IMG/VR virus record: IMGVR_UViG_3300032157_000017
Span: 1-48,305 of that record
Source of the DNA: a virus
DNA length: 48,305 nucleotides
Reading direction: 5' to 3' (one strand)
Positions within the stretch are counted from its first letter, which is position 1, and each line of letters starts with the position of its first letter. Both the position numbers and the translations under genes were made by a program. Positions 6,138-48,305 of the stretch are shown here, piece by piece. The notes below the pieces were generated by a model. That model was not told where the DNA came from, ran no database searches, and saw nothing but the letters and a program-made list of their open reading frames with translations.

Positions 6138-6449
6138 ATGCCCGACACTGAACACTTGACATCCCACGGGCCGGCACAGAAGATGAGTCCCGGCGGACGA
6201 GAGCCGCTCGGAGGGAGCCAGGACGAGACGGAATCGCCGAAACCGCGGCGGTGTCCGGGTTTTCTCGTCCCGTTGGGGGCGATCTTGAAGGCTGCGGACT
6301 GGCTGTCGGCAGGGGTCGGTGTCTTCAGCCTCGGGCTGCTGCTCTGGATCCGGCACTGGTGGGCTGCGGGAGCCGTCGCGCTGGTGCTCGGGATGCAGCT
6401 GAGCGTGTTCTGGCGGCGTTTGCCCAGGCCTCCTGGGTCCGATTCGTAA
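6138..6449 (+). CDS. Putative membrane protein (103 aa; alternative start ATG 6183)
   Basis: Track ORF with two or three hydrophobic helices (FLVPLGAILKAADWLSAGVGVFSLGLLLWIRHWWAAGAVALVLGMQLSVFW). GC3 is moderate to high in the hydrophobic part. Confidence 0.5.
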   Translation: MPDTEHLTSHGPAQKMSPGGREPLGGSQDETESPKPRRCPGFLVPLGAILKAADWLSAGVGVFSLGLLLWIRHWWAAGAVALVLGMQLSVFWRRLPRPPGSDS

Positions 6450-6522
6450 ATTTAAGCTCGATGGGGTGGAGGGGTTCGCCCCGGCGTTGCCGGGGGGTGG
6501 GGCCCAGGGGGTACCCGGCACC

Positions 6523-6666
6523 TGTTCAGTGCCGCCCGTTCAGCGCCAAAGCGGAGCACTGAACACGCGTAGCTGCGCAGAAACCACTGAACAGCTGAGG
6601 AGTTGCACCAAGTGTTCAGTGGCAGGTGACACTGAACACACGAGGAGCTGCACAGGGCGTTCAGTG
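6523..6666. promoter_or_regulatory. Array of seven 9-mer sites (CACTGAACA / TGTTCAGTG) in the largest non-coding gap; protein-binding array of unknown role (operators, iterons or arm sites)
   Basis: Copies read at 6523-6531, 6537-6545 (variant), 6557-6565, 6585-6593, 6613-6621, 6630-6638 and 6658-6666 (variant). Positions 6613-6638 are a perfect 9-bp inverted repeat with an 8-bp spacer. Confidence 0.8.
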
Positions 6667-6901
6667 TCAGGGGCGCAGTGGTGGTGTGCCATCGGGGGAA
6701 TCGGCGGGGGTCAAGCAGAAAAGCACTGCCCCACTTCGGCGAGCAGAATGCACCCCCACCCCCGATACTGGGTGCGCTGCACCCATTGGCGTGGCAGGAT
6801 GAATGGGTCGGGAGCTCGGGACGCGGTAATTCCAGCCCGTCCCCACTCCCGATAGGCCCGGCTTCAGCCCAGCCTAACAGCCAACCGAAAGAGCCCGAAC
6901 C

Positions 6902-14405: not shown

Positions 14406-14722
14406 GGCGCCTCCTTTTCGAGGCCATCGGCGATCATGCGCAGGCGCTGGGCGAGCTTGCGGAGGCAGCCGCGCGAGATTTCGTTGCCATCGGTGAGCGA
14501 GGCGCCGAAGGCGACCGGCAGCGGGCCATCGTCACCGACCACGAACGAGGCCCCGACCAGCACGACGGCGCGGAGGGCGGAGGCCTGTCTGGATTCGCCG
14601 GGGATGGTGACGCCGATGAGCTGCCGGGCGTGTTCGGAGAGCAGCTCGACCAGGTCGGATTGCGTGACGCCGGGCGCGACGGAGACGCCGGGAGGGAGGA
14701 CGGGGCCCATGGTGTCGTTCAT
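14402..14722 (-). CDS. Hypothetical protein (106 aa), tandem paralog of 14064..14405
   Basis: Track ORF with an ATGA overlap. See the paralog alignment for 14064..14405. Confidence 0.7.
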   Translation of the reverse strand: MNDTMGPVLPPGVSVAPGVTQSDLVELLSEHARQLIGVTIPGESRQASALRAVVLVGASFVVGDDGPLPVAFGASLTDGNEISRGCLRKLAQRLRMIADGLEKEAP

Positions 14723-14970
14723 TTCGAGGCCCTGCCTTTTGCGGTGAGTCTCGGGCGGATGATGGTGACGGGTTTCATCGATAGGTGACCTTTGGCTTGG
14801 AACTGACGGATGAATTGATGGGCGGAGGAGTGGCTCTTGCCGAGGGCTTCGGCGAACTCTCTCACCGTGGGGCTCTCGCCGCCGTTTTTCTCACAGAGCT
14901 TGCGATAGATGTCGAGGGCGTGTTGTTGCGCGCTCGTGAGGTTCATGTTCGGGAGGGGTTCATTGGGCAT
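14719..14970 (-). CDS. LexA N-terminal-domain-like winged-helix repressor with no peptidase domain (83 aa); first gene of the leftward early operon
   Basis: LTSAQQHALDIYRKLCEKNGGESPTVREFAEALGKSHSSAHQFIRQFQAKGHL matches the LexA DNA-binding-domain pattern (LT.RQ..vl.fi....G.pPt.rEia..lG..S......hl..L..kG.i). AAGGA lies 7 nt upstream of the ATG. Confidence 0.7.
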   Translation of the reverse strand: MPNEPLPNMNLTSAQQHALDIYRKLCEKNGGESPTVREFAEALGKSHSSAHQFIRQFQAKGHLSMKPVTIIRPRLTAKGRASK

Positions 14971-14980
14971 GCAGGTATCC

Positions 14981-15028
14981 TTACTGATGTGGACAAGTCA
15001 TGCTAGAGTGAGACAAGTCAATATGCAA
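14981..15028. promoter_or_regulatory. Overlapping divergent sigma70-like promoters with two GACAAGTCA repeats (candidate lysis/lysogeny switch)
   Basis: Plus strand: TTACTG (14981-86)-N17-TAGAGT (15004-09). Minus strand: TTGCAT (15028-23)-N17-TAGCAT (15005-00). GACAAGTCA at 14992-15000 and 15012-15020. The region is locally AT-richer. Confidence 0.55.
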
Positions 15029-15229
15029 TGTCCCTCTGCGTCACCCACACCCGCCGCCCGTCCCCGTCCATCCCCTCCTTCCCGCCCCGAGCCACGTACC
15101 GAAATGTGGCGGGGCGCGACACGCACCCTATACACTTTCGACACGGGGTGTCTACATGTCGACGCGGTTGGACGTCTGGGGACGCAGACGGACGCTATCG
15201 GCGCCAGGACGGCGTCAGAGGAGGCCAGG

Positions 15230-15586
15230 ATGGGCGGAGAGAGACCAGAGGGTCGGGCGAAGTACCTGCGGGTGCGGCCGGGGGAAGGTGTGGGCAATGG
15301 TGCGGCAGAGAACGACACGACGCCTGCGTTCACGGTGACGCGGGGGGAGCTCCGGGCGTTGGTGGCCGAGGCCGTCGCCGAGGCGCTCGAAGCAGAGCGG
15401 CCGGGGCCGCCGGCGCTGCTCACGCGCCAGCAGCTGGCGAGCGTGTTCGGCTGCAGCCCGAGCCTCATCGACAAGTTCTTGCGGCAGGGGCTGCCGTGCA
15501 TTCGGCTCGGCGACAGCCCGAGGTTTCAGGTCGAGGCTGCGCTCGAGTGGCTGCGCTCGGGCGAGCGCAAGGCAGGTGGGGCGTGA
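15230..15586 (+). CDS. Excisionase/MerR-type HTH protein (118 aa), Xis-like by position
   Basis: Internal ATG 15230 with GAGGAGG 5-6 nt upstream. C-terminal LLTRQQLASVFGCSPSLIDKFLRQGLPCIRLGDSPRFQVEAALEWL fits the excisionase-family HTH pattern. Confidence 0.65.
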   Translation: MGGERPEGRAKYLRVRPGEGVGNGAAENDTTPAFTVTRGELRALVAEAVAEALEAERPGPPALLTRQQLASVFGCSPSLIDKFLRQGLPCIRLGDSPRFQVEAALEWLRSGERKAGGA

Positions 15587-15765
15587 GCCCCGAGCAGGCG
15601 CGCGCGGTGCTGAAGCGCGAGGGCTGGAACTTCCTCGACCTGTTCGGACTGGTCGAGGCCTTCGCCGAGCTGACGGACGGCGGGCTCGACGCGAGGAGTC
15701 CTCGCGTGCGCGTGGTCATCAAACGGCTACCGCTGCGCAAGCGGACGAAGAAGGTGAAGCCGTGA
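15583..15765 (+). CDS. Hypothetical small basic-tailed protein (60 aa) directly upstream of int
   Basis: GTG 15583 in a GTGA overlap (read). SPEQARAVLKREGWNFLDLFGLVEAFAELTDGG...KRTKKVKP. Confidence 0.55.
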   Translation: MSPEQARAVLKREGWNFLDLFGLVEAFAELTDGGLDARSPRVRVVIKRLPLRKRTKKVKP

Positions 15766-17423
15766 CCGAGAAGCGTGGACCCGGTCGGCCCCGCACGGCC
15801 ACGCCGAAGCGCACGAAGGAGGGCCACTCGGCGCGCGTGTGGGTCGAGTGCGAGGGCGAGAAGGTGCGCACGACGGTGAAGCTCGGCACGAAGAGCCGAA
15901 TCGTGGCGCGGGCGCGCTCCAAACGCGTGCTCGCGGGGGAGGCGCCGGAGCTCGTGGCGGAGAAGAGCGAGAGCTTCGAGAGCGCGGCGCGCCGGTGGCT
16001 CGAGGCGAGCGCGGTGAAGGATCGGAAGCGGATGCTCGGGCGCCTGTCGAACCACGCCTTCCCGGTGATTGGGCAGATCCCGGTGAGTGAGCTGACGAGC
16101 GTGCACATCTTCGACGTGCTCGAGGACGTGGCGGGCAAGGTCGGGGGCTGGACGGGCAGCGTGCGCAACGTGCGCGACGCGATCAGCAAGGTGCTCGGGC
16201 TCCTCGTCGCGCGCCGGGTGCTGGACGTGAACGAGGCGCTGCGGATCAAGCTCAAGGGCAAGGACTCGCTCGGGGGCAAGCGCCTGCGCAAGGTCCGCCC
16301 GCCCCGAGCGGTGCTCACGGATGGGGAGTTCGAGCCGTTCCTCGCGTGGCTGGTGGTGGAGACGGAGCATGCGCACCCGGGCCGGGCGCGCCGGGCGCTC
16401 GAGGATGTGACGCTCTACTTTTCGGCGCGCGTGTTCGGGATGCGGTCGAGCGATGCGTTCTCGTGGCGGTGGGAGATGATCGAGCTCGGCGCGTTTGGCG
16501 ACGCGTACGTGCCGCGGCAGAAGACGGAGGGGCACCTGCTCGACGACGAGGACGAGGCCGAGGACGAGGCGTTGGTGCTCGAGCGGTGGCGGGACGAGCC
16601 GCGTGCGGCGATCCCCGAGGGGCTCGCGGGGTGGCTTCGGCTGTGGTGGGAGGCGAGCGGGCGACCCGAGGAGGGGTTCGTGTGGCCGGTGAGGCAGGGG
16701 GCGCGGGCTGGGGGGAAGAGGACGGCGGGGGCCCATGCCTTGCGGCTGCGGCGCCGGCTGTGGCAGGCGGGGGTGAGCCGAGCGCGCCCTGGGGTCACGG
16801 AGGTGAAGAGCCCCGCCGACTGCGTGCTGCAGACGGGCATCGCGCGGCGCATGAGCCCGGTCGACTTCCATTCGTTCCGGCGGGCGGCGGCGACGGCGGC
16901 GGGCAAGGCGGCGGCGGCGGGGCAGCTGAGCCTGCGGGAGGCGATGCTACTGACGCACCACAGCGATCCGGCGGTGTTTGCGCGGTATCAGGCGAGGGAG
17001 GAGCGCATCGTGGTTCCGGAAAGTTCCGTCCCGGCAATAGTGGCAGCGCCGGAGGCATTATCCCGAGTGGTTAAACACAGTCGGCAGCCAAAAACGGCTG
17101 TCAGTGAAGGCAAGGAGGCCGAAGTGAGGAGTGGTCCACCAACTTCTGAGGGCATCGATACCCCTGTTTTTAAGCCGTTTTCGCCTACGGCGAGTACCCC
17201 CGTAGGCGTCGTACAACCCCATAAAACGACCGACTGCCATTATTCGCTGCCAGTATTCGAGAGCCTCGCCGAGGTGCTCGAGTTCGCCGTGCAGCTCGCC
17301 ATGCGCGAAGGCGACATGAGCAGCGCGAAGGCGCTCCTCGACGTCGCTGAACGTCGCCGCGCTACCTTGCCCGACAACGTCCGACCCCTCGCACCGTCAG
17401 CGCGCAAGGGAGGCAAGCCGTGA
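15762..17423 (+). CDS. int: Tyrosine recombinase / phage integrase (553 aa)
   Basis: GTG 15762 in a GTGA overlap (read); the track ORF starts earlier at 15576. Catalytic-type motifs ARVFGMRSSD (Arg), HSFRR (H-x-x-R) and THHSDPAVFARY (His...Tyr). About 140 aa follow the Tyr. Confidence 0.85.
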   Translation: MTEKRGPGRPRTATPKRTKEGHSARVWVECEGEKVRTTVKLGTKSRIVARARSKRVLAGEAPELVAEKSESFESAARRWLEASAVKDRKRMLGRLSNHAFPVIGQIPVSELTSVHIFDVLEDVAGKVGGWTGSVRNVRDAISKVLGLLVARRVLDVNEALRIKLKGKDSLGGKRLRKVRPPRAVLTDGEFEPFLAWLVVETEHAHPGRARRALEDVTLYFSARVFGMRSSDAFSWRWEMIELGAFGDAYVPRQKTEGHLLDDEDEAEDEALVLERWRDEPRAAIPEGLAGWLRLWWEASGRPEEGFVWPVRQGARAGGKRTAGAHALRLRRRLWQAGVSRARPGVTEVKSPADCVLQTGIARRMSPVDFHSFRRAAATAAGKAAAAGQLSLREAMLLTHHSDPAVFARYQAREERIVVPESSVPAIVAAPEALSRVVKHSRQPKTAVSEGKEAEVRSGPPTSEGIDTPVFKPFSPTASTPVGVVQPHKTTDCHYSLPVFESLAEVLEFAVQLAMREGDMSSAKALLDVAERRRATLPDNVRPLAPSARKGGKP

Positions 17424-17683
17424 GCTGCGACCACAAGTTCGTCGACTCGAACGTCTGCCTGAAGTGCGGCGTCAGCATCGGCGCCCTGCTCGACCAAGAC
17501 CGCGGCGAGCTCGTCGGTATCGTCCAGAAGCAGAAGCTCGAGCTCGCCAAGCTCCGCGACGCGTTCGACGACGCCGTCGCGCTGCTGCGGGACTGGGAGG
17601 ACTACGACCCCGACGACGAACAGTGCGGCTGGGAGAAGCGGCGCGACGAGTTCCTCGCCGAGCACGAGGAGGCGGGGCGATGA
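17420..17683 (+). CDS. Hypothetical protein with an N-terminal zinc-ribbon-like motif (87 aa)
   Basis: Track ORF whose start overlaps the int stop. CDHKFVDSNVCLKCG followed by an acidic coiled-coil region. Confidence 0.65.
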   Translation: MSCDHKFVDSNVCLKCGVSIGALLDQDRGELVGIVQKQKLELAKLRDAFDDAVALLRDWEDYDPDDEQCGWEKRRDEFLAEHEEAGR

Positions 17684-17841
17684 GTTCAGCCTCCGAAGCG
17701 AACGCCGTCGGCATCTGCATCACCGGATGCAGCGTCGCCGTCGCGCTGCTCGCGGAAAGCCTATGGGTCGGCCTCGCCTCGCTCTTCGGCTTGGCGCTCG
17801 TCGACTTCTGGATCGAGTCCTTGCAGCGGAGGCAGCGGTGA
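17680..17841 (+). CDS. Small membrane protein (53 aa)
   Basis: Internal ATG 17680 (ATGA overlap). VGICITGCSVAVALLAESLWVGLASLFGLALVDFWI. Confidence 0.55.
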   Translation: MSSASEANAVGICITGCSVAVALLAESLWVGLASLFGLALVDFWIESLQRRQR

Positions 17842-18044
17842 GCACCGCGCACGACTGGCTCCGGCGCGACGGGATGACCGTGCGCGAGATCGCCAAGGCC
17901 CTGAAGATTTCAACCAACCGCGTCAAGCAGCTCGAGCACCGCGCCATCGCGAAGGTGCGGCAGAACCCCCGCCTGCTCCGGCGCCTGTTCGAGTTCGTCG
18001 ACTTCGATTGCGACGTCCAGCCACCCCAGAGGTCCCCTCGATGA
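17838..18044 (+). CDS. Stand-alone sigma-70 region-4 / LuxR-type HTH protein (68 aa)
   Basis: GTG 17838 in a GTGA overlap (read). MTVREIAKALKISTNRVKQLEHRAIAKVRQ matches the region 4.2 pattern (..EIA..lgiS...VrQi..RAl.KLR). Confidence 0.6.
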   Translation: MSTAHDWLRRDGMTVREIAKALKISTNRVKQLEHRAIAKVRQNPRLLRRLFEFVDFDCDVQPPQRSPR

Positions 18045-29846: not shown

Positions 29847-30256
29847 TGTAGCGTGAGGCTCGCCTCCACCGAGAGCTCGCCACCGGCGGCCATCCGGAGC
29901 ACGAGCGAGTTCAGAGTCTGCGTCGCCGCCGCCGTCACCGTGAGACTCGGTGTCTCGATGTCGGCGCCGCTCCCGATGGCGCCAACCGAGCCGCTCGCCG
30001 CGACGTCGCCGTTCTGGTTCGTGATGACGAAGCGGTTGGCTGCGCCGGCGACTTCCGTCCCTGTCGAGCCGATGGGGGTGGACGCCGCAACGATGCTGTC
30101 GAGGTTGGCCGCGCCGAACGGAGTCGCGGCGAGCGGAAAGACAGCGAGCGAAGTGTTCGTCTGGTAGAGCGTGAAGTTCGCCGTGCCCGAGCCGATCTCC
30201 AGGTAGTCCTCGAACCCGTCGAGCATCGCCGCGCGTGCGCCGAGTGAGAGCGTCAT
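29843..30256 (-). CDS. Virion-module protein (137 aa), function unknown
   Basis: Internal ATG 30256 (ATGA overlap) of track ORF 29843..30586. MTLSLGARAAMLDGFEDYLEIGSGTANFTLYQTN... Confidence 0.6.
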   Translation of the reverse strand: MTLSLGARAAMLDGFEDYLEIGSGTANFTLYQTNTSLAVFPLAATPFGAANLDSIVAASTPIGSTGTEVAGAANRFVITNQNGDVAASGSVGAIGSGADIETPSLTVTAAATQTLNSLVLRMAAGGELSVEASLTLQ

Positions 30257-42100: not shown

Positions 42101-43015
42101 TCAGGCGTTCGAGAAGAAGAAGCCGCGGGGGTTCACCCAGCCGCGGGACCACCGAGCGGTGATGCCGTAGTTCATCATCGTCTTGTCCTCGGTCACCCAG
42201 GTGTTGCTCTTGGGCTTGCGCCGCCAGAACCACATGATGCCGAGCTCGGCGTCGGTGATGAGGCCCCAGTTGGTCGTGGTCGTGTTCCAGTACTTGACTG
42301 GCACCGGGGTGAGGTTCAGGTCGCGATTGACGACGTTGATCGCGTTGAACGCGCCCGGCGTCGGGTCGTAGCTCGAGCCGAGCAGCTCGCGCCAGAGCCC
42401 CCATTGCTGCACGGGGAACACGGCCTTCTTCGCCTCGACGCCGTCGATGAGCCCGTCGTGGCCGACCTGCTGCATGAGCTGCGCCGTCGCGATGACGAGC
42501 GCGGCCTTGCTCGGCGAGAACTGCGCCGAGGGGAACATGTTCGCGTAGGTGCCGCCGCCGGGCAGCACGTGCGCCGTGCTCGCGAGGGGCTGCCCATCGC
42601 CGCCGACGAAGGCCGCGTTCGCGGCGCGCACCAGGATGAGGGTCGCGTCGAAGTCGACGAGCTTCCAGAGCGAGCGGTTGTTGCGCTTCGCGGCCTGGAT
42701 GACCTTGTCGTACTTCATGTCCTCCAGCGCCTCTTCGCTCACGATCATGCGCTGACCGTAGGTGCGGGCGTTGAAGCGAGTGAGCGGGCCTTCGACGATG
42801 GTCCCGACCGGGATGCTCTCGCCTTCGGGCTTCTCGCCTGCGAGACCGCCGCCGGCGATCTCGTAGTACTCGATGTAGTTGTCCGTCATGTTCTTGACGG
42901 TCATCCACTTGTTGAAGACAGCCTTGCTGCCTTCGGATCCGTGCTCGTCGGTGTCGATGTCCTCGAGCGTGTCCTTGAGGGCGAGCGCCGCGGTACTGGT
43001 AAAAATCTCACTCAT
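42101..43015 (-). CDS. Major capsid protein (HK97-fold type) (304 aa)
   Basis: Track ORF with capsid-like size, position and sequence character (...YYEIAGGGLAGEKPEGESIPVGTIVEGPLTRFNARTYGQRMIVSEEALEDMKYD...). It follows the scaffold and decoration-like genes. Confidence 0.7.
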   Translation of the reverse strand: MSEIFTSTAALALKDTLEDIDTDEHGSEGSKAVFNKWMTVKNMTDNYIEYYEIAGGGLAGEKPEGESIPVGTIVEGPLTRFNARTYGQRMIVSEEALEDMKYDKVIQAAKRNNRSLWKLVDFDATLILVRAANAAFVGGDGQPLASTAHVLPGGGTYANMFPSAQFSPSKAALVIATAQLMQQVGHDGLIDGVEAKKAVFPVQQWGLWRELLGSSYDPTPGAFNAINVVNRDLNLTPVPVKYWNTTTTNWGLITDAELGIMWFWRRKPKSNTWVTEDKTMMNYGITARWSRGWVNPRGFFFSNA

Positions 43016-47515: not shown

Positions 47516-48305
47516 GCGGCTCCTCTCTGTTGCTGGTTGGCGGGCGGCGCGGGGCGCGGCTGCGCCGGCGCGGCAGGTCCCGGGGGCGGGCCTCCTGCGC
47601 CGGGAGGTGCTCCGGGCGGAGCCATGCCGGGGGGCGGCATGGGCGGGCTCGTCGGCACGCCGAATTGCTGCGGGGGCGGGGGCGGCGCGCCGAGGAGCCC
47701 GATGAGGTCGTAGCGATTACGCGCCTCGAGGCTCTTCGAGATGACCGCGTACTTGAAGGCGAAGTTCTGCGCGAGCTCGGGCACGGCGTTCGGCATCTGG
47801 ACGAGCGCATCGGCCTCGCTGATGCGTTGGGAGGTGCTCGTGAACTTCAGGTCGGCGGAGAACTCGACGTCGTAGGGGCGGTCGTACATGTCACGCCCGA
47901 CGGAGAACGTCTGCTGCCCCATGGCGCCGACGGCGGGGTCGTGATTGTTCACGCTGAACCACTCGACGTCCTCGAGGAAGATCGCGTTCAGAAGGGCGTT
48001 GTTGATGAGCACCTGCGTGACGAAGTCGGCGTACTTCTGGGTGGGGACGCTGAGCATCTTCGTCGCCTGCTCGATGCGGGCGCTGATGCCCTGCGCGGTC
48101 TCGCCGCTCTTGCCGCTCTCGCCCGAGAGCACCTCCGGCGTGTTGCTCACCGTGTTGCCGAAGCGGACGAGCATCTCGATGAGCTGCAGGAACTGGGGGT
48201 TGGCCTGCCCGAACTCGAGCGGGACGATGTCCTTCGAGAGATCCACCGAGCCTTGCACGGTGTGGATCTTCCCCGGCGCGAGGCGGATGGTGTCGCCGTC
48301 CTGGA
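47512..48305 (-). CDS. Portal protein, C-terminal part (continues from 1..1595 through the terminal overlap), ending in a Pro-rich tail of about 58 aa
   Basis: Track ORF 47512..48258 is the same frame. The frame stays open to 48305 and is continuous with the minus frame of bases 128-1595. Confidence 0.8.
   Translation of the reverse strand, partial: QDGDTIRLAPGKIHTVQGSVDLSKDIVPLEFGQANPQFLQLIEMLVRFGNTVSNTPEVLSGESGKSGETAQGISARIEQATKMLSVPTQKYADFVTQVLINNALLNAIFLEDVEWFSVNNHDPAVGAMGQQTFSVGRDMYDRPYDVEFSADLKFTSTSQRISEADALVQMPNAVPELAQNFAFKYAVISKSLEARNRYDLIGLLGAPPPPPQQFGVPTSPPMPPPGMAPPGAPPGAGGPPPGPAAPAQPRPAPPANQQQRGAA
48179..48305. repeat. Terminal direct repeat, identical to 1..127
   Basis: Read directly. 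Confidence 0.95.

Follow-up and report, generated by a model that had tools for sequence, protein, structure and literature searches.

Does the integrase gene of the phage genome IMGVR_UViG_3300032157_000017 (an IMG/VR record of 48,305 nucleotides, analyzed at full length and called the window here) carry, within its own 3' end, the site at which the phage enters a chromosome? The question arises because a stretch of this gene, int, is written in a composition foreign to the rest of the genome. We consider it likely, chiefly by comparison with relatives, that positions 17019-17261 are the chromosomal phage attachment site (attP) of a lambda-type tyrosine integrase (Int), lying inside the reading frame of int itself. 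The first and last 127 nucleotides (nt) of the window are identical (1-127 and 48179-48305), leaving 48,178 unique bases, and the sequence encodes a large terminase subunit, a baseplate hub and an exonuclease-RecT fusion. It is thus a circularly closed or terminally redundant assembly of a tailed-phage genome rather than a prophage in host DNA, and a full-length int is therefore the form expected of the phage state, which counts in favor of an intragenic attP.

A preliminary, sequence-only reading of this locus had described a drop in G+C and a switch to A/T-ending codons between 17050 and 17265, and quantification bears it out. G+C is 0.55-0.60 in 100-nt segments of 17000-17299 against 0.65-0.81 (about 0.70) on either side, while third-position G+C in the int frame, 0.85-1.00 as far as 16961, falls to 0.50-0.55 in 17022-17261 and returns to 0.95 from 17262. 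The patch had therefore been correctly located, but its limits had been drawn too tightly, as the anomaly is slightly wider and runs from about 17019 to 17261. With a G+C of 0.551 the patch belongs to the lowest 0.12% of all 216-nt segments in the 48 kb, and 27 of its 80 codons (34%, with TTA, ATA, AGT, AAA and CCA among them) are ones with a genome frequency below 0.3%, compared with 3.1% in reference open reading frames (ORFs; binomial P = 7e-21). Such a patch would arise because binding sites override the genome's bias toward G/C-ending codons. Only two other stretches of the window are equally G+C-poor. One (14801-14850) lies within a LexA-like repressor ORF (14719-14970) just ahead of the divergent junction with the early operon, where 14867-14879 forms the sole terminator-like hairpin detected in 14500-18000, and the other (42831-42900) lies inside a minus-strand ORF of the structural region.

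The patch coincides with a distinct part of the protein. The catalytic tyrosine, Tyr409, is encoded at 16986-16988 and is followed by 144 codons, in line with the roughly 140 codons that the sequence-only reading had counted past the catalytic region; the proposed attP extends from 33 to 275 nt past the Tyr codon, inside the open reading frame of int. In an AlphaFold2 model built on 27 homologues, Int begins with a three-stranded beta domain (residues 15-40) and a helix, the beta domain being modelled as an arm-binding domain like that of lambda Int, and continues with a helical core-binding domain and a catalytic domain that ends at about residue 410. Next come a predicted disordered linker (residues 413-495, predicted local distance difference test score (pLDDT) about 29), whose peptide is poorly conserved among homologues, and a C-terminal helical hairpin (residues 502-532, with helices at 502-515 and 519-532, pLDDT about 80). 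The best Foldseek match to this model is full-length lambda Int (1z1b, E = 3.5e-8, 427 aligned columns), with Cre, Tn1549 Int and XerA/XerH ranked below it. Phage_int_M is the only Pfam match (E = 4e-9), the Pfam catalytic-domain model giving none, and the catalytic signature DFHSFRR (HxxR) with LTHH...Y (H...Y) is kept in the 27 homologues. Taken with the predicted arm domain and the candidate arm repeats described below, these motifs and the modelled fold place Int among the tyrosine recombinases of the lambda-Int (heterobivalent) type. That the patch falls on the codons of the disordered linker counts for the attP reading.

To compare the locus at the DNA level, 24 Int relatives at 55-71% identity were gathered, plus more distant ones, and DNA was obtained for 12 further members of the clade. 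The relatives keep the compositional dip, whose loss, along with the lack of any host match, the sequence-only reading had named as a sign against attP; in L001, for example, it stands at the equivalent place. Across nine full-length clade int genes aligned by codon (546 columns), an A/T third position is found in at least 80% of genes at 25 columns, and all 25 are within 17019-17253. Only one of 11 aligned relatives departs from a patch length of 240 nt, and over 11 sequences the patch contains no stop codon in the int frame, whereas the other two frames have 30 and 23. Reading from the left, the conserved blocks are an invariant TGGCAGCGCCG, GGTTAA, a dyad AGCC-N6-GGCT, GAGTG-N6-CAAC, a T-rich box and a block ending in CTGCCATTATTCGAG, and these are invariant even at synonymous sites (alignment A2). 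The fixed length, the open frame and the conserved A/T third positions therefore argue that the patch is translated and at the same time constrained as DNA, both in sequence and in spacing.

What kind of DNA element is held so constant is indicated by more distant members of the family. Five sister phages of the same phage group (L010, L012, L013, L019 and L099, all in the phage state; the first four have Ints 39-45% identical to that of the window) carry about 48 nt of a transfer RNA (tRNA) gene, tRNA-Arg(CCG), antisense and translated in the same linker of Int. The fragment spans the anticodon loop to the 3' end, and a complete tRNA gene is absent there in all five. Among integrated distant relatives (about 30% Int identity) there are 32 loci at which a complete antisense tRNA, for Arg, Asn, Met, Gly, Val, Glu, Asp or Lys, directly follows the catalytic domain, and the int stop codon is inside the adjoining tRNA in 29 of them and beyond it in the other 3. 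Relatives at this distance are mostly integrated (elsewhere put at about half), and phage-state relatives instead carry tails of about 310-670 nt. Two matched pairs capture the reaction directly: one consists of the prophage L057 (tRNA-Arg) and the phage-state L058, with 92% Int identity, the other of L037 and L036 (tRNA-Asn, 90% Int identity), and within each pair the two sequences stay collinear across the left arm and the 3' half of the tRNA and diverge at the anticodon loop. The tRNA fragments, the integrated loci and the matched pairs therefore make an attP inside int, with the C-terminus replaced on integration, a trait of the family as judged from these comparisons. This is the arrangement that the sequence-only reading had proposed by analogy with Myxococcus phage Mx8, and the retained dip, the tRNA halves of the five sister phages and the distant prophage junctions all speak for it; it had also named junctions elsewhere, such as in the 6450-6900 gap, as a sign against it, and those of the relatives sit in the int linker and not in the intergenic gap.

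Some of these loci are worth describing in their own right. In 29 of the 32 prophage loci (L021-L094) the int frame crosses nearly the whole tRNA and stops 6-30 nt before its 5' end, in most of them within about 11 nt of it; we suspect, on the basis of one tRNA sequence, that the stop is a TGA or TAG from the complement of the conserved D-arm. L045 (2331-2950) and L047 (5935-6554) share an identical int over 480 codons; the point at which they separate is exactly the 3' end of a tRNA-Asn gene, complete in L045, and L047 has no tRNA fragment. This could be a 3'-end crossover with a very short core, or a secondary event, and the pair indicates that host-identical cores in this integrase family may be too short to recognize. 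L013 and L014 (jgi 3300063449, Ga0610839_04075) are one integrase gene present at both ends of a 58.8-kb contig, which is therefore taken as a phage genome of ~52 kb assembled in circular or concatemeric form.

The motifs within the patch are laid out as in an attP with two arms and a core (Table 1). With up to 2 mismatches allowed, CTGCCATTATT has three matches in the 48 kb, all of them in the patch, one inverted on the left and two in tandem on the right, and an operator-style recurrence test found the arm-like motif absent from the rest of the genome. These repeats are candidate arm-type integrase sites, having the expected pattern and fitting the modelled arm-binding domain. The P' block ACGACAGAACGGCAAAACTCGCTGCCATTATTCGAG is conserved (alignment A2 columns 241-275) and recognizable in the tRNA-type relatives L010 and L012. 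The T-rich box is also present in both, and is therefore phage-specific and not host-derived; it is possibly a site for a DNA-bending protein on the P' side. In this respect the sequence-only reading needs correction, since it had taken the whole patch for host-identical core sequence, and most of the patch consists instead of phage-specific conserved blocks and arm-type repeats, as a whole attP of arms plus core would.

Table 1. Coordinates of int, its proposed attP and associated features in the window.
Feature	Positions	Strand	Remarks
HTH (helix-turn-helix) gene, 3' part of ORF 14909-15586	15338..15586	+	Upstream of int; candidate excisionase/directionality factor
int	15762..17423	+	553 aa (amino acids) from GTG start; lambda-type tyrosine integrase
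P-arm block	17014..17064		Consensus GCCGGAAAGTGCCGTTCCGACAATAATGGCAGCGCCGnCGGCATTATTCC; alignment A2 columns 29-79; TGGCAGCGCCG invariant in 11 sequences
Proposed attP, about 240 bp	17019..17261		Wholly inside disordered-linker codons; coincides with low-G+C, rare-codon patch
Candidate arm-type Int site CTGCCACTATT, P arm, inverted	17036..17046	-	Conserved in relatives; 100 nt before predicted core center
Weaker arm-type-like site GGCATTATCC, P arm, direct	17054..17063	+	GGCATTATTCC conserved, alignment A2 columns 69-79
Inverted repeat 1 (IR1), dyad GGCAGCC-AAAAAC-GGCTGTC	17083..17102		AGCC-N6-GGCT invariant; 34-54 bp left of predicted core
Predicted core/crossover GAGTG-GTCCAC-CAAC	17129..17143		Center ~17136, Int residue ~459
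T-rich box TGTTTTTAAGCCGTTTT	17166..17182		Clade consensus GTTTCTCC..GTTTTC; alignment A2 columns 179-197
Inverted repeat 2 (IR2), perfect, CGCCTACGG-N9-CCGTAGGCG	17182..17208		Only in this phage; core role improbable
Tandem candidate P'-arm sites, CTGCCATTATT (17234-17244) and CTGCCAGTATT (17247-17257)	17234..17257	+	
C-terminal helical module codons	17262..17423	+	aa 501-553; protein-level conservation in 27 homologues; third-position G+C 0.95

Within such a site the point of strand exchange can be predicted from its geometry. Relative to the anticodon-loop crossover, L010 and L012 have arm sites at -102, -84, +98 to +101 and +111 to +114, and in the window they lie at -100, +100 and +113 relative to 17136, with the weaker P-arm site at about -82. 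By analogy with these tRNA-type relatives the crossover is predicted near 17136, within GAGTG-N6-CAAC, a placement that we give about an even chance of being right. GAGTG and CAAC, including the rare codon AGT, are kept in 12 of 13 clade sequences, and a near-palindrome, TGGTCCACCA, occupies 17132-17141 inside the predicted core.

Both inverted repeats listed by the sequence-only reading, IR1 and IR2, are present where it had placed them, and IR1 is at the center of the strongest alternative, in which attP is still intragenic but strands are exchanged in the 6-bp spacer of IR1 and GAGTG-N6-CAAC is accessory. IR1 has the classical form, two inverted 7-bp arms separated by 6 bp; no other central element is so universally conserved (it occurs in 13 of 13 sequences, and changes in its arms are compensatory); and its spacer differs by subclade (AAAAAC, AGAAAC, TAATTC, GAATTT, AAATCA) as an attB-matched overlap might, attB being the bacterial attachment site. 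All 13 clade sequences keep the six inner pairs of the stem, two of which show compensatory changes (GC in 7, AU in 3 and GU in 3; CG in 10 and GC in 3), and 4 have lost the outermost, seventh pair. The covariation is matched by 1 of 500 shuffles, and IR1-like sites elsewhere in the genome are at chance level. However, IR1 stands at -56/+144 from the arm sites, as opposed to about -102/+100 for the crossover of L010 and L012 in the same fixed-length attP. L012, moreover, keeps the left arm of IR1 and its spacer (GAGCCAAATTC) beside the tRNA-Arg fragment, where they cannot be the core, which argues that they belong to a phage arm. On balance we find strand exchange at IR1 unlikely, though far from negligible, and IR1 itself is probably an accessory protein-binding site or a hairpin. 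In the attP of phage lambda the sites of accessory proteins are likewise located to the left of the core.

IR2 has a weaker claim. The sequence-only reading had suggested this perfect 9-bp repeat as the core-type sites, but it is missing from 10 of 10 aligned relatives, and its position relative to the arm sites (-159/+41, against about -102/+100 for the crossover in tRNA-type relatives) departs from their geometry. IR2 beats 300 of 300 local shuffles; the window as a whole holds 29 seed matches to perfect 9-bp inverted repeats with 3-20-nt spacers, at about 19 distinct sites, and one such repeat in any given 216 nt is therefore unremarkable genome-wide (roughly P = 0.08). A core at IR2 is very doubtful.

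Two observations touch on exchange within attP. The left arm of L012 (4260-4400; Logan SRR33230239_10361) matches the window clade through the left arm and spacer of IR1, and the tRNA-Arg(CCG) 3' half follows directly, so that this attP is apparently a hybrid; it suggests that the core cassette may be swappable between arms. L099 (3880-5508; jgi 3300047144, Ga0499852_0015509) encodes a 542-aa integrase of a different N-terminal/catalytic lineage with the same C-terminal module, a gene missed by the gene caller, which called only its last 79 aa. This gene suggests that the catalytic part of int and the tail module can be exchanged between phages at attP.

It is important to set out what weighs against an integrative attP in this clade. 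Neither ARAGORN nor Rfam at its gathering thresholds finds a fragment of a tRNA, transfer-messenger RNA or other RNA gene in the patch, and Rfam at E values up to 10 finds no match on 16980-17300, whereas the same relaxed scan recovers a weak tRNA T-arm match in L010. Among 185,579 species genomes there was no relative of Int, by one protein scan and one scan with the 27-homologue alignment, and no prophage (with its junctions attL and attR) or attB of this clade was found in the collections searched. The clade members, ~25 including those from a metagenome scan, are all in the phage state. The crossover is a prediction from geometry, and one clade member, L102, is without the GAGTG...CAAC motif. 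Finally, the cassette between the conserved elements is ~60-70% alike across subclades (estimated by eye from the alignments), so that any identity with the host must be short, or the target evolves quickly, and the effect of losing the Int tail is an extrapolation from Mx8, to whose Int there is no more than a remote similarity.

Searches for traces of integration by other routes were likewise negative. When the C-terminal module alone was compared with a protein collection, for fragments from the attL side, no junction was seen among the matches examined: the short matches L101-L103 are cut by contig ends, that in L099 is a full-length Int of another lineage (L100, left unread, looked similar), and P0030, P0031, P0034 and P0037 were assessed by sequence only. 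In a viral DNA collection, the P-arm pattern retrieved a known relative and three chance matches, the predicted core 19-mer had no match, and the IR2 pattern had one unrelated chance match. A tRNA-like reading of the plus strand, with a D-loop-like GAGTGGTTAA and a downstream ...CCACCA, was considered and rejected, as it has no T-arm and no support from any tool, and is also undercut by the presence of GGTTAA in L012, which uses an antisense tRNA-Arg.

Could chromosomal integration then have been lost, with Int resolving, for example, dimers of a plasmid-like prophage at IR1 as a lox- or dif-like site? None of ~25 clade members is integrated, compared with about half of the relatives at 30% identity, the patch lacks a tRNA fragment, and IR1 resembles a symmetric recombination site. 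Yet the five tRNA-Arg sister phages, which have a clear integration core, are also found only in the phage state, and the missing prophages are therefore better explained by sampling or by poorly assembled hosts. Typical features of a directional attP are still in place, namely arm-type repeats, an arm-binding domain and a fixed 240-nt spacing, and a non-exhaustive annotation revealed no partition genes in the ORFs that it tested. A purely resolving role for Int thus appears very unlikely.

Slightly less probable again is that the patch is an internal regulatory region, either controlling the early genes downstream as their promoter or operator or forming a structured part of the int mRNA, with IR1 as an RNA hairpin. 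The stretch is relatively A/T-rich in a genome of 68% G+C, its repeated motifs could be operators, and three sequences have a G-T at one pair of IR1, equivalent to G-U in sense-strand RNA. Against this, no sigma-70-like promoter was found in 14500-18000 (the promoter type of the host may differ), the same position is a tRNA 3' half in sister phages and a prophage junction in relatives, and the layout of motifs copies that of the relatives' attPs, with which a regulatory role could coexist. That the patch is mere linker, its codon bias relaxed or its rare codons serving a translational pause, fits a peptide that is poorly conserved and predicted to be disordered (pLDDT about 29), but is scarcely credible, since relaxed selection would not preserve A/T third positions in 9 lineages or a length of exactly 240 nt, and it leaves the patch-only repeat, the compensatory changes in the dyad and the tRNA fragments of relatives unexplained.

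Other features of the window bear on the search for an attachment site. ARAGORN calls a 97-nt tRNA-Gly(CCC) at 29935-30031, where Rfam at its gathering threshold finds no tRNA and where resemblance to a standard tRNA is lacking by eye; the call is probably a false positive. In the gap at 6520-6670, seven copies of the 8-mer GTTCAGYG or its complement alternate in orientation (6524, 6538, 6557, 6585, 6614, 6630 and 6659), perhaps as protein-binding sites of an operator, origin or packaging region. This gap is the alternative attP location named by the sequence-only reading, and the relatives give no support for attP there. Upstream of int, the HTH ORF matches PHROG families of HTH DNA-binding proteins (3e-7) and phrog_66, 'excisionase and transcriptional regulator' (2.5e-4), which makes it a weak candidate for an excisionase or directionality factor.

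We hypothesize that, as an intragenic attP, this DNA serves two purposes, keeping an open frame while carrying the arm repeats, IR1, the T-rich box and a short core. IR1 and the T-rich box would probably bind accessory or bending proteins, and strands would be exchanged with the host attB at the short core near 17129-17143. Integration would then cut int at about codon 459, giving a prophage Int with a short host-encoded tail and leaving the last ~95 residues, including the helical module, at the other end of the prophage, on the principle by which IntP becomes IntX in Mx8. More tentatively, it is possible that the clade has swapped an ancestral tRNA-Arg core for a short non-tRNA core while keeping the arms, the spacing and the module, that the detachable module is, across a large uncultured family of tyrosine integrases, a self-removed switch between integration and excision, and that IR1 is a new accessory element co-evolving with the phage. 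As such a switch, the module would belong to the phage form of Int and be lost from the prophage form through Int's own reaction.

What this locus itself gains is chiefly a functional annotation made with confidence and a crossover prediction open to testing, but the implications extend to the family. Outside the archaeal SSV type, Mx8 and the RAP44-like Riemerella phages were the only cases of an attP within int in the literature that we searched. Taken together, the window, some 25 close relatives, the five tRNA-Arg sister phages and dozens of integrated distant relatives point to an arrangement that is common in an uncultured integrase family, in which the int frame crosses the attachment site in antisense and integration removes the tail of the enzyme. 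Pipelines that bar an attachment site from overlapping a coding sequence will misplace prophage ends in this family, and int genes of unequal length should be expected in phage and prophage forms. A compact int-attP cassette of ~1.9 kb could also become an integration vector for the hosts of these phages, like the Mx8 cassette in myxobacteria.

RAP44-like Riemerella phages have a 19-bp attP within int and lose the end of that gene when they integrate at a tRNA-Ser 3' end (PMC12169736). The RAP44 site is in the terminal 25-43 nt of int, so that only a 43-bp remnant is split off, and neither a long linker nor a C-terminal module of the kind predicted here is described for those phages. Integrases of the archaeal SSV type also have attP within the integrase ORF, and the gene is partitioned on integration (PMC8371274; PMC7253208), which splits and inactivates it in a manner reported as exclusive to archaea (PMC8371274). 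The predicted cut in the window, at about codon 459, would fall after a complete catalytic domain (ending at about residue 410), and the gene would in this sense not be suicidal; by analogy with Mx8, Int in its prophage form should stay catalytically competent.

Use of tRNA genes as bacterial attachment sites is reviewed in PMC8371274, which cites Williams 2002. The wider family resembles the anticodon-loop tRNA integrases in having an attP with a tRNA 3' half and a junction at the anticodon loop, but here the tRNA fragment is antisense inside the int ORF, and the window clade is without a recognizable one. The likeness to lambda lies in an attP of ~240 bp with arm-type repeats flanking a central core and room for accessory-protein sites, and in the modelled arm-binding, core-binding and catalytic domains, for which lambda Int is the best structural match. 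The attP of lambda is located outside int, whereas that of the window would be translated in its entirety as the Int linker, followed by a C-terminal module, and its arm sites are candidates recognized from sequence.

The closest parallel in design is Mx8, in which attP is within int and integration creates a new 3' end of the gene (PMC6070905), and which is listed with SSV among integrases that extend across attP (PMC4383910). Its GenBank record contains an antisense fragment of tRNA-Asp (T-arm and acceptor) inside int at ~6443-6472, flanked on both sides by GTGACAGCG repeats, in a G+C dip of 0.58-0.63, with uoi just upstream. Mx8 and the window thus share a tyrosine integrase with attP, proposed in the case of the window, inside its own coding sequence 3' of the catalytic Tyr, repeats within int and a G+C dip around the core region, and a small HTH gene just upstream of int (the excisionase gene uoi in Mx8, an HTH ORF in the window). 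Integration has been shown experimentally for Mx8 only. The arm repeats also differ (GTGACAGCG in Mx8, CTGCCATTATT in the window), and to the tRNA-Asp fragment of Mx8 there corresponds a tRNA-Arg fragment in the sister phages and none recognizable in the window clade. Similarity between the two Ints is 31% over 88 aa of the N-terminal/core-binding region (pairwise E = 9e-7), a tblastn search of the phage collection gave no match at 1e-5, and the genomes share one small ORF and are otherwise unrelated; we therefore rejected the idea that the window is an Mx8-like phage. Judged by these sequences, the arrangements in the window and in Mx8 appear to be either analogous or very anciently shared, and the window phage to represent a new lineage with the same design.

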